Below, piece after piece: positions 3,158 to 21,904 of a stretch of DNA of 64,000 nt. Under the pieces are notes generated by a model, which was not told the origin of the DNA, searched no databases, and worked only from the letters and a program-made list of their open reading frames with translations. Source of the DNA: Nitrosopumilus sp. (GTDB taxonomy: Archaea; Thermoproteota; Nitrososphaeria; Nitrososphaerales; Nitrosopumilaceae); contig CBDBLX010000002.1 in the NCBI GenBank assembly GCA_965207445.1, positions 2,071,849 to 2,135,848 on the forward strand, given 5' to 3'. A program made the position numbers and the translations under genes. Position 1 is the stretch's first letter. Every line of letters begins with the position of its first letter.

Positions 3158-3796
3158 TTGTTTTCAATCTCAACCTTGGCAGATGTTGTCAGGATTCCAC
3201 CCGATCAGTTCGGAACTACGCTCCGAAAAGCTGCTATGAGTATACTAAAGGAAAAATACGAGAGTATGATTAATTCTGAGCTAGGGTACATAATCATGAT
3301 ACTAGATGCCAAAGTCGATGAGATGGGAAAGATGGTAGCAGGTGACGGGGGTACGTTTCACAGAGTAAATTTCAAGGCACTTACATTTTATCCAAAGTTG
3401 CAAGAGATCGTTTACGGCGAGATTGTAGATATTACAGATTTTGGTGCATTTGTTAGAATAGGACCTACGGATGCATTGTTGCACCTGTCACAGGTTATGG
3501 ATGACTATTTGAAGAGTGATGTCAAATCTGGAATGATCATTGCAAATCAGAGTGGTAGGACACTCAAAGTAGGTTCTGCACTACGTGCAAGAATTACAGC
3601 AGTGTCACTAGGCAAATCAGCTACAATGGGTAAAATCGGTATAACATGCAGACAGCCATTTTTGGGCACCGATGAGTGGATTGCAGAAGAAATTAAAAAA
3701 ATAGAGGGCGGTAATGAAAAAAGTGATGGGCAAAAAAGCAACAGTGGTGAGAAAAATGCAGGTAAAAAGACAAAGGATGGCGGAGGTAAAAAATAA
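3158..3796 (+). CDS. rpoE1: DNA-directed RNA polymerase subunit Rpo7 (E')
   Basis: GDGGTFH and S1 domain (TDFGAFVRIGPTDALLHLSQV); paired with spt4. Confidence 0.95.
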   Translation: MFSISTLADVVRIPPDQFGTTLRKAAMSILKEKYESMINSELGYIIMILDAKVDEMGKMVAGDGGTFHRVNFKALTFYPKLQEIVYGEIVDITDFGAFVRIGPTDALLHLSQVMDDYLKSDVKSGMIIANQSGRTLKVGSALRARITAVSLGKSATMGKIGITCRQPFLGTDEWIAEEIKKIEGGNEKSDGQKSNSGEKNAGKKTKDGGGKK

Positions 3797-3984
3797 TGGC
3801 AAGGGAGATGGCATGCCGCAAGTGCAAGTTTGTCACCACCGCAAAATTATGCCCAGTTTGTAAATCATCTGACCTAACTCCAGACTGGAATGGCATAGTA
3901 CTAGTAGTAGATCCATCCAACTCAGAAATCTCAAAAACGCTAGGAATAACACAAAAAGGCAAGTACGCAATCAAAGTCGTGTGA
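3796..3984 (+). CDS. spt4: Transcription elongation factor Spt4 (RpoE2)
   Basis: CRKC...CPVC zinc ribbon and GKYAIKV C-terminus. The last codon and stop lie inside a MITE terminal repeat. Confidence 0.95.
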   Translation: MAREMACRKCKFVTTAKLCPVCKSSDLTPDWNGIVLVVDPSNSEISKTLGITQKGKYAIKVV

Positions 3985-4127
3985 GCCAAGCTCCATGACA
4001 GGTATGATCATTCAAAAATAACTCCTAGCCAAATGTAGCGCATACACAATATTCAATATGTAGATAGAGATGTGACCAAATACAAGTATGTGATTTTATT
4101 ATTGCATCCACAGAGCTTGGTTCACAC
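3979..4127. mobile_element. MITE family B, copy 1 (149 bp)
   Basis: Terminal inverted repeats GTGTGAGCCAAGCTC / GAGCTTGGTTCACAC (14/15). Exact 8-bp flanking direct repeat TCAAAGTC (3971-3978, 4128-4135). A homologous copy lies at 15759-15906. Confidence 0.9.
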
Positions 4128-4159
4128 TCAAAGTCACATGACCACCATGATTGCAAAAA

Positions 4160-4292
4160 TAATAATAATATCATATTAATAACAACCACAATATCATATT
4201 AATAACAACCACAATATCATATTAATAATAATATCATATTAATAATAATAATAATATCATATTAATAACAATCATAATATCATATTAATAAT
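4160..4292. repeat. Degenerate AT-rich tandem repeat (core AATATCATATTAATAA) x~6
   Basis: Read directly from the sequence. Confidence 0.85.
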
Positions 4293-4378
4293 AAATTCAC
4301 ATCTTCATTTAACTATATCTGTATAATTATATTTGAAATTAATAATGAGTGTCAAAGGTGTAATTAACTCAACATGAT

Positions 4379-4957
4379 TCACAAATTCCATCTAGTTACA
4401 AAGTCAAATCCTTCCAACGGGCCTGGAAACTCCAACATATGGTAATGCTTGCGAATTATTTTCTCAGGTACACGTTCTTTGCCAGTTCTTTTACGATTCC
4501 ACACAAATGCCTGCTTAAAGTTGTAAAATGACACTGCATGTATAGATGCATTATACAAACGAGCAAGTCGTATGTATGGCCAGCGCACCTCTTGTGTAAG
4601 ATTTGTATCATCAATCACTACATTTCTGCCAGATTTGAGTATATCAGATATCTGAATATACTCTACTTGTCGACTATTGCTGTTCTGAGTGGTGCTCAAT
4701 TGTGCGTCATGTGTGGTACATGCAGGATTTTTTGGCATAGTACTATACGTTAGACCAAGACATAACGGGTTTTCTTGATCATATCTTTCTTTTAATTTGT
4801 GTCGGGTGAATCCATTCATACACATACGATTTATGTCAAGTGACACATGAACATAATCATAGAGCATATTTTTAGCATATGTTGTTTTTCCACACCCAGG
4901 TATGCCAATCAGCATAACTACATCTGCATGTAGTTGAGTAAGTTTGGAGGCCTGCAT
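4379..4957 (-). CDS. P-loop kinase of the AAA_33 / polynucleotide-kinase-like family
   Basis: GIPGCGKTT Walker A, VVIDDTNL...R, RxxR lid (RKRTGKERVPEKII) and EGFD end. The start is uncertain (4957 or 4996). Confidence 0.75.
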   Translation of the reverse strand: MQASKLTQLHADVVMLIGIPGCGKTTYAKNMLYDYVHVSLDINRMCMNGFTRHKLKERYDQENPLCLGLTYSTMPKNPACTTHDAQLSTTQNSNSRQVEYIQISDILKSGRNVVIDDTNLTQEVRWPYIRLARLYNASIHAVSFYNFKQAFVWNRKRTGKERVPEKIIRKHYHMLEFPGPLEGFDFVTRWNL

Positions 4958-5057
4958 GTGGTATCTGTAATGTGTTGTTAAAAAAATATTATGCAAGAAA
5001 TTAAAAATAACCAGAATGCATTATTATAATTTAATCACATATTTAATAAATTGTGAC

Positions 5058-5138
5058 GTAACCGCTCAACCCCTGTGCCTGCACTAGAAGTTAGGCGATG
5101 AATCTGTGTCTAAACTTGAGAATGAGTTGAACGGTTAC
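5058..5138 (-). mobile_element. MITE family A (81 bp), copy with intact target-site duplication
   Basis: Terminal inverted repeats GTAACCGCTCAAC / GTTGAACGGTTAC. Exact 9-bp direct repeat AATTGTGAC on both flanks (5049-5057, 5139-5147). Reverse orientation relative to the 21824 copy. Confidence 0.92.
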
Positions 5139-5339
5139 AATTGTGACATCATATTTGTCTTGTAGAATCATTCAAGTATTCAAATATGTTTATTAATACT
5201 TATTACTTGTATTAAAAATATTATTATTTTATTTGTAATTGTTATGTTGTTTAAATTATAACATGCAATATTATTATAATTAAGTATTATAATTGATAAT
5301 TAGCATCACTAAAATATTTGATAAAACATCAATAATACA

Positions 5340-6230
5340 GTGAGTGAAATAACACCTCAGATCAAAGAAGAACTAGAGAGATTCTTAAAAGAAGATATTG
5401 GAAAAGGCGATATTACAAGTGCACTACTCCCAAATGGTACAATTACAGCAGAAATAATTACAAAAGAAGATACAATAATTGCAGGTGTAACATATGCAAG
5501 AACTATGTTTGAATTACAAAATTGTGAATCCAAAATACTAAAGTCAGATGGTGTAAAGGCACACAAAGGAGACACCATTATGAGAATTAGTGGAAAACCA
5601 CAAAACGTACTAGCATGTGAGAGAACTGCTCTAAATTTGCTATCAAGAATGAGCGGTATTGCTACTGCAACAGCAGAGATCGTAAACAGGACATCAACAT
5701 CAACAAGAAAAATTGCAAAACTTTATGCTACAAGAAAGACAGCTCCCGGCTTGCGCATATTTGACAAAATTGCAGTAGAGATCGGAGGCGCAAAAAGGCA
5801 CAGAATGAGATTGGATGAATCAATAATGATAAAAGACAATCATATTGCAACAGTATGTACTCTAGATTCAAGATCTCCAAAACACACAACGAGTAGCGCA
5901 ATACAACATCTAATTAAAAAAGCAAAACAAAAGTACAAAGAAATAGAAGTTGAAGTAGAGAGTTCAACAGATGCCATAATAGCAGCGCGCGCAGGTGCAA
6001 CCACAATAATGATAGATAACTTATCACCCTTTGGTGTCATAGAAACAGTAAGGTTACTCAAAAAAGAGGGATTGCGAGATAGTATAACAATAGAGGCATC
6101 AGGCAAGATAACCAAAAAAAATATTGGAAAATATATGAAAAGTGGTGTAGATAGAATATCAATGGGTTCCATTACAAACTCTGTTAAAGGGGTTGATCTC
6201 AGCTTGGAGGTCATACAAGAGTCAAGTTGA
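5340..6230 (+). CDS. nadC: Nicotinate-nucleotide pyrophosphorylase (quinolinate phosphoribosyltransferase)
   Basis: Motifs EDIGKGDITS, TRKTAPGLR, HRMRLDESIMIKDNH and EVEVES; clustered with nadA and nadX. Confidence 0.95.
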   Translation: MSEITPQIKEELERFLKEDIGKGDITSALLPNGTITAEIITKEDTIIAGVTYARTMFELQNCESKILKSDGVKAHKGDTIMRISGKPQNVLACERTALNLLSRMSGIATATAEIVNRTSTSTRKIAKLYATRKTAPGLRIFDKIAVEIGGAKRHRMRLDESIMIKDNHIATVCTLDSRSPKHTTSSAIQHLIKKAKQKYKEIEVEVESSTDAIIAARAGATTIMIDNLSPFGVIETVRLLKKEGLRDSITIEASGKITKKNIGKYMKSGVDRISMGSITNSVKGVDLSLEVIQESS

Positions 6231-8861: not shown

Positions 8862-10259
8862 ATGAATAGAATCAACATGATATGTGTAATTGCATGCAGT
8901 GTTATGTTGGTACCAAGTATTATGATTATATATGATATGAATAACAATGTACATTACACAAAAAATGCATTTGCACAAATAGAACCAGATTCACCAAAAA
9001 AACAAGTAGAGTTAGGTGTTATGCCTGAAAATATAATATGTAAAAAAGAGCATGTGCTTGCGATCAGAGTAAATGGTGCGGCTATGTGTGTCACAGTAAA
9101 TACAGCAGAGATACTAGCTGATAGAGGCATTATAGACAGAATCATAGGCCATACAGCAAAATATGAAGATGAGAATGCAAAAAAGAATACCACATCCATA
9201 GAGTTACAAGATAAAATCAATGACATGGACACGAATCAAGGAAATCAGACAATTGTATCAAACTCGACTAGTGCAATGGCAAACACAAATGCAAGCGCAA
9301 CAGCATCAAATACAGATGCAACAAACATGGCAAACTCGACTAGTGCAATGGCAAACACAAATGCAAGCGCAACAGCATCAAATACAGATGCAACAAACAT
9401 GGCAAACTCGACTAGTGCAATGGCAAACACAAATGCAAGCGCAACAGCATCAAATACAGATGCAACAAACATGGCAAACTCGACTAGTGCAATGGCAAAC
9501 ACAAATGCAAGCGCAACAGCATCAAATTCACAAAAAGACAAGTCCAATCCAAGCAGCGTCACTACGATACCAGCATCCACCATGTCAGTTGTGAACTTTT
9601 ATGTCACAGATCACGATCTAAACATAGCTCGAAATGCACCAGAAACAATCTCAACAAAAGGATTATTGGAATTTACTATAAACGGAATACCCATTGAAGG
9701 GCCAAAAACTATGACAGAAACAGGACCCAATACAGGACAATTCTATGTAAAGTTGGAACTTCCTGCCACTATCAATGGCAGACCATTAAATCAAAATGAC
9801 ATAGTAGACATTACATATCTAGACAAATCAGATTATTCTGGAGAGCCACATACGGTCAGAAAGTCATTTACGCTCTCAAGCACATATGCACAACTTCAAA
9901 CACAAGGAGACGGCGGAAAACGAATCGGTCACGAGTTTAGACTTGTAATACATGAACCAGATGCAAACAGAGACTCACAAGAAGAAGACAGAATACCTTT
10001 GAATAGATTTGAGTTTGAAAGTAAAGGTAACATAAAGGTCACACTTGATCATCATGCATTTGATGCAAACAAGAGTCACATGGTAGAGACAGGTCCCAAT
10101 ACAGGAATATTTGATGTTACAATAAAGATACCACGTCAGATAGATGGTAAGATCATTAACATAGGTGACTGGTACAAGATCATATACAATGATTATACAA
10201 CACCATCAGGCACTTCAGAAGAGATAATTTTAAGAGGAAAGATAGGACTGTCATCCTGA
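8862..10259 (+). CDS. Exported / surface-layer-like protein with internal 24-aa Asn/Ser/Thr/Ala repeat
   Basis: N-terminal hydrophobic segment. Two ETGPNTG motifs and D-x-D-x-N motifs resemble thaumarchaeal S-layer-type domains. Confidence 0.7.
   Translation: MNRINMICVIACSVMLVPSIMIIYDMNNNVHYTKNAFAQIEPDSPKKQVELGVMPENIICKKEHVLAIRVNGAAMCVTVNTAEILADRGIIDRIIGHTAKYEDENAKKNTTSIELQDKINDMDTNQGNQTIVSNSTSAMANTNASATASNTDATNMANSTSAMANTNASATASNTDATNMANSTSAMANTNASATASNTDATNMANSTSAMANTNASATASNSQKDKSNPSSVTTIPASTMSVVNFYVTDHDLNIARNAPETISTKGLLEFTINGIPIEGPKTMTETGPNTGQFYVKLELPATINGRPLNQNDIVDITYLDKSDYSGEPHTVRKSFTLSSTYAQLQTQGDGGKRIGHEFRLVIHEPDANRDSQEEDRIPLNRFEFESKGNIKVTLDHHAFDANKSHMVETGPNTGIFDVTIKIPRQIDGKIINIGDWYKIIYNDYTTPSGTSEEIILRGKIGLSS
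9259..9527 (+). repeat. 72-bp perfect coding tandem repeat x~3.7 (NSTSAMANTNASATASNTDATNMA)
   Basis: Units start 72 bp apart (9261, 9333, 9405, 9477). Confidence 0.95.
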
Positions 10260-15758: not shown

Positions 15759-15906
15759 GTGTGAATCAATCTCTTTGGACACAATAATGAAATCACATAC
15801 TTGTGTTTGGTCACATCCCCGTCTACATGTCGAGTATTGTGCATGCGATACATTTGGCTAGTAGTTATTTTGAATGATTATATCAGTCATGGATCTTGGT
15901 TCACAT
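15759..15906. mobile_element. MITE family B, copy 2 (148 bp, opposite orientation, diverged)
   Basis: Colinear with the reverse complement of 3979-4127 along its full length. Ends GTGTGAATCAATCTC / GATCTTGGTTCACAT, flanked by AATTTTT on both sides. Confidence 0.85.
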
Positions 15907-21823: not shown

Positions 21824-21904
21824 GTAACCGTTCAACCCCTTCCCAAATTTAGGCACAAATTCACCGCCTAACGTCTGGCGCAGGTACGGGAGTTGAACGT
21901 TTAC
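21824..21904 (+). mobile_element. MITE family A copy (81 bp)
   Basis: GTAACCGTTCAAC...GTTGAACGTTTAC with the conserved interior CCAAATTTAGGCACAAATTCACCGCCTAACGTCTGGCGCAGG. Confidence 0.9.

Follow-up and report, generated by a model that had tools for sequence, protein, structure and literature searches.

Results

The rpo7–spt4 locus

The stretch analysed here (the window) comprises 64,000 nucleotides of a Nitrosopumilus sp. genome. On its forward strand, the stop codon of rpo7 (rpoE1; 3158–3796), which encodes RNA polymerase subunit E′ (PF03876 and PF00575, with TIGR00448 above its cut-off), overlaps the start of spt4 (3796–3984; PF06093, NF041664). The latter encodes a 62-aa protein ending in IKVV, and its last codon and stop lie within a 149-bp MITE (3979–4127, forward strand) that is 89.9% identical to its family consensus and 87.9% identical to the nearest copy. 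The element is bordered by 15-bp terminal inverted repeats (3979–3993 on the forward and 4113–4127 on the reverse strand; 14 of 15 bases complementary) and flanked by an exact 8-bp target duplication, TCAAAGTC, the left copy of which (3971–3978, forward strand) is coding, while the right copy occupies 4128–4135 on the same strand. Directly behind it stands ACA TGA (4136–4141, forward strand), the displaced ancestral threonine codon and stop. With the element in place, the spt4 frame ends in YAIKVV, the final GTG (3979–3981) and TGA (3982–3984) being supplied by the element's left terminus; without the element and one duplicate, it ends in YAIKVT. An earlier, sequence-only reading of this locus had described the 149-bp insertion with its inverted ends and duplication, the ancestral KVT end, and the replacement of the last codon and stop by the GTGTGA terminus, and all of this, coordinates included, was verified. 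It had also held that either orientation would deliver GTG–TGA; indeed, the stop at bases 4–6 is kept in 165 of the 180 family ends.

The region downstream of spt4 is unusual as well. In 26 of 33 relative loci nadC lies close behind spt4, at roughly 20–250 bases, whereas here it begins 1.35 kb away (5340–6230, forward strand). The interval holds an AT-rich array of about six units of 23/17 bp (4160–4294, unstranded), whose 15-bp core is not present elsewhere in the genome, an AAA_33 P-loop kinase-like gene identified by its domain match (4379–4996, reverse strand; convergent on spt4), and an 81-bp MITE of a second family. The AAA_33 gene was found in none of 33 relative spt4 loci. The 4160–4996 segment thus consists of a single-copy AAA_33 gene followed, on that gene's strand, by the unique AT-rich array, inserted between spt4 and nadC. 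No same-direction gene directly follows the element, a circumstance that may have made the insertion cheaper. Elsewhere in the window (8862–10259), a 465-aa secreted-looking protein carries a tandem Ala/Asn/Thr/Ser repeat of about 24 residues.

Support for the junctions

The left junction is bridged by a Logan contig (X1, 2900–4030) and the right junction by Logan contigs X1 and X4 (4008–4196), in each case with no differences; these contigs come from the best-matching sample. X1 and X4 represent one sample, perhaps the assembly's own source, and do not count as independent support. Among the Logan contigs over the site, none joins the flanks without the element, that is, none carries an empty spt4 allele. 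X5, labelled a sponge metagenome and stemming from another study, covers 3473–3906 with six differences and ends before the junction, while holding family copies in other flanks; X6 covers 208 bases only and has no bearing on the junction. In the window, the end motif matches four times against 0.20 expected.

Because contigs bridge both junctions, an assembly slip at the spt4 element is excluded. That a high-copy repeat was mis-assembled into a chimeric junction, or that the 8-bp match arose by chance, is accordingly an extremely improbable reading, and largely refuted. What speaks for it is that a matching duplication is absent in 66 of the 90 family copies, as mis-joins could produce, and that the assembly contains a second haplotype; it has to contend, however, with contigs that span both junctions without differences and with an exact duplication that is followed, at spt4, by the ancestral ACA codon and stop.

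Spt4 C-termini in relatives

Among 22 same-genus spt4 loci, 21 end in IKVT, all with ACA for the threonine, the exception being G008 with IKVV; four further same-genus loci, which include the closest genomes by two other proteins, all end in IKVT. The alignment proposed earlier therefore returns KVT in 25 of 26 same-genus loci. In seven loci from other families, the last residue is T or S. A pattern search that did not cover TAG stops retrieved KYAIKVV followed by a stop in 6 of 150 genus genomes, and in these six relatives spt4 is intact, the downstream DNA is ordinary and the element is absent. The sequence-only reading had regarded such element-free KVV relatives as grounds for its rejection: they do exist, yet the insertion stands, since the displaced ACA TGA and the duplication remain. 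The relatives' spt4 ends identify the displaced ACA as the ancestral codon and show that Spt4 can naturally end in valine, and the claim that the one-residue change is tolerated is borne out by the same six genomes. Alignments with solved Pyrococcus Spt4 chains do not extend to the last residue of Spt4.

A profile search of 39 relative spt4 loci did not find the element, nor was it found in 150 genus genomes when up to five candidates were scored per genome.

The 149-bp family

BLAST and profile searches of the genome gave 124 matches, of which 90 are full-length; they represent 89 dispersed loci, one copy on contig C1 being allelic to a copy on contig C2. A second copy in the window lies at 15759–15906 on the reverse strand. 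The family has no coding capacity: whichever of the six frames is used for entry, its consensus reaches a stop within 1–34 codons. Of the 90 copies, 24 carry an 8-bp duplication with at most one mismatch, 16 of them exact, whereas shuffles average 0.94 such copies and never exceed 5. Other duplication lengths give no signal, and no exact duplications of 5, 6 or 9–12 bp were found among the 90 copies. The flanks are AT-rich on both sides, with or without a surviving duplication; the spt4 target fits this preference poorly, at the 15th percentile of observed flanks. The anatomy is that of a MITE: the element is short, has terminal inverted repeats and a fixed duplication length, occurs in dispersed copies and shares its ends with a resident IS.

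Contig C1 represents a second haplotype that matches the first 120 kb of C2 at about 98.6% identity; it carries two family copies. At C2:37787-37934 the copy is flanked by an exact duplication and has a twin of 99.3% identity; its allelic site on C1 consists of a single target without an element. Since this copy is absent from C1, where the target is single, the family must have moved recently. The spt4 copy has no close twin and, judged by its divergence, is probably older. Only 19 of 87 inner branches are well supported in a tree of the 90 copies (149 columns), in which the three copies that supply stops to host genes do not group together and which does not allow the spt4 insertion to be dated. 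Most departures from the consensus are G>A (577) or C>T (470), and family-wide the ends are scarcely better preserved than the interior (12.5% versus 15.0% mismatch).

Comparison of C1 with C2:1-120000 further revealed presence/absence differences of elements, as well as a 20.8-kb difference with 81-bp MITE ends at its borders. For two unmatched copies, C2:1128611 and C2:1576177, the flanks cross-match as if by a 448-kb inversion, a weak signal of which, by a rough estimate, about two would be expected by chance.

A candidate mobilising element

Two long elements, C2:1264815-1266654 (1840 bp) and C2:652719-654915, have the same ends as the MITE; each contains one long ORF and is flanked by an exact 8-bp duplication. 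The right end of the MITE consensus is identical to the IS end over its first 11 bases, and similarity extends about 45–60 bases inward. In C2:1264815-1266654 the ORF is a single 547-codon frame, and the 540-aa protein matches PF03050 (DDE_Tnp_IS66) with 94.6 bits against a cut-off of 23.1 (E 9e-27); with NF033517 it scores 173.2 bits, just under the cut-off of 180 (E 8.8e-51), with no rival family. The two intact transposases differ in length by 119 aa, the second being longer; the difference lies close to the N-terminus, in a run of perfect 7-residue (21-bp) repeats. Canonical IS66 elements have a GTAA terminus; the ends of the partner begin with GTGC and GTGT, and GTAA is absent. Of 150 genus genomes, 35 contain related transposases, with a best identity of 36–37%; one such element, in G156, resembles the partner in its ends and is flanked by an exact 8-bp duplication.

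The sequence-only reading had named no mobiliser. Shared ends, an equal duplication length and the polymorphism between haplotypes lead us to infer that the MITE is likely moved in trans by the resident single-ORF transposase of the IS66 family. The sequence features point to an IS66-type partner, possibly of the ISBst12 group, which the single ORF and the 8-bp repeat would fit.

Related MITEs and element pairs

The second family, represented behind spt4 by the copy at 5058–5138 (forward strand), is 81 bp long, has GTAACC ends and is flanked there by a 9-bp duplication (5049–5057 and 5139–5147). Other copies in the window start at 21824, 34732, 52957 and 57363; among the 123 full-length copies, an exact duplication measures 9 bp in 22 and 8 bp in four. 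A 70-bp MITE with GTGTGA ends (C2:878988-879057 and nine more; 10 copies, 92–100% identity) shows an exact 8-bp duplication in half of its copies (5/10), and is likely a younger family using the same IS66-type transposase.

Copies of the 149-bp MITE also occur as neighbours less than 10 kb apart, and an exact outer 8-bp duplication bounds 3 of 30 such pairs. An inverted pair (C2:178385-181001) encloses a 750-aa protein with a PsbP-like match, a second pair (C2:840725-843455) has an exact outer 8-bp duplication, and a third (C2:2255053-2257328) encloses an AAA_14/DUF4143 ATPase split into two ORFs. No empty site for the C2:178385-181001 pair was found in the contigs placed on the locus. From their sequence layout, the bounded pairs may be composite transposons or products of later integrations into a first copy, the latter having been described for a haloarchaeal MITE (PMC7002104).

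Element ends and gene ends

Both consensus ends read Val–stop in frame 0, and the other frames stop after 6–34 codons. A scan of all 180 ends identified 37 ORFs of at least 40 codons running into an element. In three of the 90 copies, Val–stop falls at or near the end of the orthologue: spt4, a 218-aa conserved protein and a methyltransferase. The methyltransferase, on C1, ends at the same position as a 60%-identical orthologue; the 218-aa protein is one residue longer than four relatives, and its closest relatives have longer tails. In neither of these two cases is the element copy flanked by a duplication.

We compared these counts with a null model weighted by target preference and comprising intergenic DNA and the last codons of 2389 called genes, the calls coming from our own Markov model, which missed spt4. 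Under this model, 0.46 in-frame copies are expected if no more than one codon is lost and 0.70 if two are, against the three observed. The probability is 0.37–0.50 for at least one copy, the lower value being the chance that at least one of the 90 lands in frame within a last codon, 0.012–0.034 for three, and 0.08–0.16 for two when the index case is left out. The enrichment at stop codons that the sequence-only reading proposed to look for is hence weak without the case that suggested it. When frame is ignored, 1.4–2.2 copies are expected versus 3–4 seen. Distances of 176 ends from the 3′ side of a gene match those of random intergenic placement (3 seen versus 1.7 at 1–15 bp, 6 versus 7.0 at 16–50 bp, 16 versus 17.0 at 51–150 bp), in a comparison resting on a first gene set that called an antisense frame over the 218-aa gene.

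A widened scan of all GTGTGA ends and the GTAACC family gave 38 rows, from which nine were dropped (seven motif matches within genes judged by eye to be chance, one haplotype duplicate and one stop-less end) and to which one was added from the 180-end scan, leaving 30. Of these coding-like ORFs, 16 enter the element in the built-in-stop frame (P 0.019, post hoc), some of them being plain truncations, for example of an Eco57I-type gene. Among the genes closed in this manner are hemA (L072:401-1810), whose stop comes from an IS-end remnant within a long, low-complexity Asp/Thr-rich tail, and a radB-like gene (L091:401-1246), whose stop is provided by an 81-bp MITE near its usual end; each is present in 105 of 105 relatives.

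These observations bear on the possibility that the transposase favours the 3′ ends of genes, for instance by coupling to transcription or termination complexes, and that the element has evolved its built-in stop so as to land there without harm. The surplus of copies at natural ends, the frame bias in 16 of 30 ORFs and the closure by element ends of two genes present in all 105 relatives would all agree with such targeting. Nevertheless, we hold it to be quite unlikely: gene-end distances follow random placement, the any-frame expectation is near the number seen, the methyltransferase and 218-aa junctions lack duplications and may reflect later deletions, and the 218-aa protein is shorter than its closest relatives. 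The frame bias fits a survival filter and would also fit mild targeting; combined with little overall excess, it suggests the pattern expected from purifying selection.

Fold of the element

The element region folds at −37.1 kcal/mol (z −1.80), a value equalled or bettered in 13 of 200 shuffles, and in the centroid fold hardly anything remains except the 15-bp stem formed by the ends, so the hairpin that the sequence-only reading expected in the 3′ region comes down to the pairing of the termini. In RNA, each of the 15 end pairs is possible, the single change from the consensus giving a G–U pair, and the spt4 stop lies within the 5′ arm of the stem. The spt4 copy folds less stably than the consensus (−35.7 versus −44.1 kcal/mol). 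A U-rich tract is present at 4094. An Rfam search gave no match at E 0.1, and a scan with sigma-70 promoter and hairpin-terminator models, which do not suit archaea, gave no terminator.

One could suppose that selection has kept the element as a new 3′ element which protects or terminates the rpo7–spt4 mRNA or shields it from the convergent AAA_33 gene. The complete set of end pairs, the U-rich tract, the rebuilt region behind spt4 and the lack of an empty allele in the contigs would be in keeping with this, as would the finding that bacterial MITE hairpins change the stability of upstream mRNAs (PMC2229807). We nonetheless regard such a role as unlikely, given that the fold is unexceptional and weaker than that of the consensus, that the interior has decayed by about 10%, that Rfam gives no match, and that a translating ribosome would be expected to open a stem whose 5′ arm contains the stop codon.

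Discussion

Taken together, our analyses make it probable that a non-autonomous MITE, likely mobilised in trans by an IS66-type element, inserted behind the next-to-last codon of spt4 and likely persisted there because its end is read as a tolerated valine followed by a stop. The transposase would cut an AT-rich 8-bp target and duplicate it; most insertions within genes would be purged, and in-frame landings at the last one or two codons would pass the filter by virtue of both ends beginning with GTG–TGA. The spt4 copy would since have decayed like other copies. Because AT-rich targeting and a survival filter suffice, neither stop-codon targeting nor a regulatory gain is needed, and the insertion is likely a neutral, harmless accident rather than an adaptation. 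Some points sit less comfortably with this explanation, namely the three Val–stop copies against 0.46–0.70 expected, the 16 of 30 ORFs in the built-in-stop frame, the NF033517 score under its cut-off, the poor fit of the spt4 target, and the reliance on gene calls from a model that missed spt4. A bolder proposal is that the stop within the first six bases of both ends of this archaeon's IS66-type elements is a safe-landing device that rewrote the ends of core genes (spt4, hemA and the radB-like gene) and added hairpins to the mRNAs of these genes, with MITE pairs carrying whole genes as composite transposons; we consider it unlikely.

If the insertion is the accident that we favour, the spt4 event is a clean example of transposon survival in an essential gene, and no more. 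Ammonia-oxidising archaea have few genetic tools. The family, as a still polymorphic IS66-type MITE system with an intact transposase in such an archaeon, is a candidate transposon tool, and the 66 of 90 copies without a matched duplication imply that it is likely a driver of genome rearrangement. Should end-targeting or a 3′ role prove true, it would bear on the origin of archaeal terminators and 3′ UTRs; should the safe-landing proposal prove true, the family would exemplify MITE-driven rewiring of 3′ ends and gene traffic, for which we found no archaeal description in the literature searched. That search, which lay outside the main archaeal-IS and IS66 reviews, ISfinder and supplements, found no published description of the 149-bp family either, and this IS66-type MITE family is apparently unlisted.

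Repeats that supply stop codons have a precedent in the GTAG-tagged REP sequences, in which the repeat end provides the stop codon of the upstream gene (PMC3733652), as it does here. However, REPs are short palindromes that often lie on stops, whereas the present element has terminal repeats and a target duplication, 3 of 90 copies supply a stop at or near a natural gene end, and distances to gene ends match the null expectation.

The partner resembles the ISBst12 group of IS66, which is characterized by a single ORF and an 8-bp direct repeat (PMC12898284). Members such as ISDge4 share with it one ORF, a DDE_Tnp_IS66 domain, a weak zf-IS66 match, the 8-bp repeat and ends starting with GT. The ends of ISDge4 begin with GTGA and GTAA (PMC12898284), so the GTAA motif is not strict. 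The partner differs from ISDge4 in its GTG(T/C)GA ends and in its 540-aa protein with a variable N-terminal heptad-repeat stretch, and from the IS66 family at large in that the protein falls just under the NCBI IS66 cut-off, its best relative in the genus being 36–37% identical.

Known bacterial and archaeal MITEs include Correia, ERIC, RUP, YPAL and RPE (PMC2229807), MITEAba12 (PMC6382973) and the haloarchaeal MITEHsal (PMC7002104). Archaeal MITEs are thus established (PMC7002104), and MITEs fused to gene ends, altering upstream mRNAs or supplying stops, are already known in bacteria; MITEAba12, for instance, has stops in all six frames and terminates a gene 31 bases into the element (PMC6382973). 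Such elements have in common with ours a length below 200 bp, the lack of a protein, inverted ends shared with an IS, a target duplication, AT-rich sites and fusions to gene 3′ ends. What differs is that the partner here is of the IS66 type with an 8-bp duplication rather than a TA-targeting IS630 type; that each end has the stop as its second codon, which leaves the length of the host protein unchanged; and that the host gene encodes a core archaeal transcription factor.
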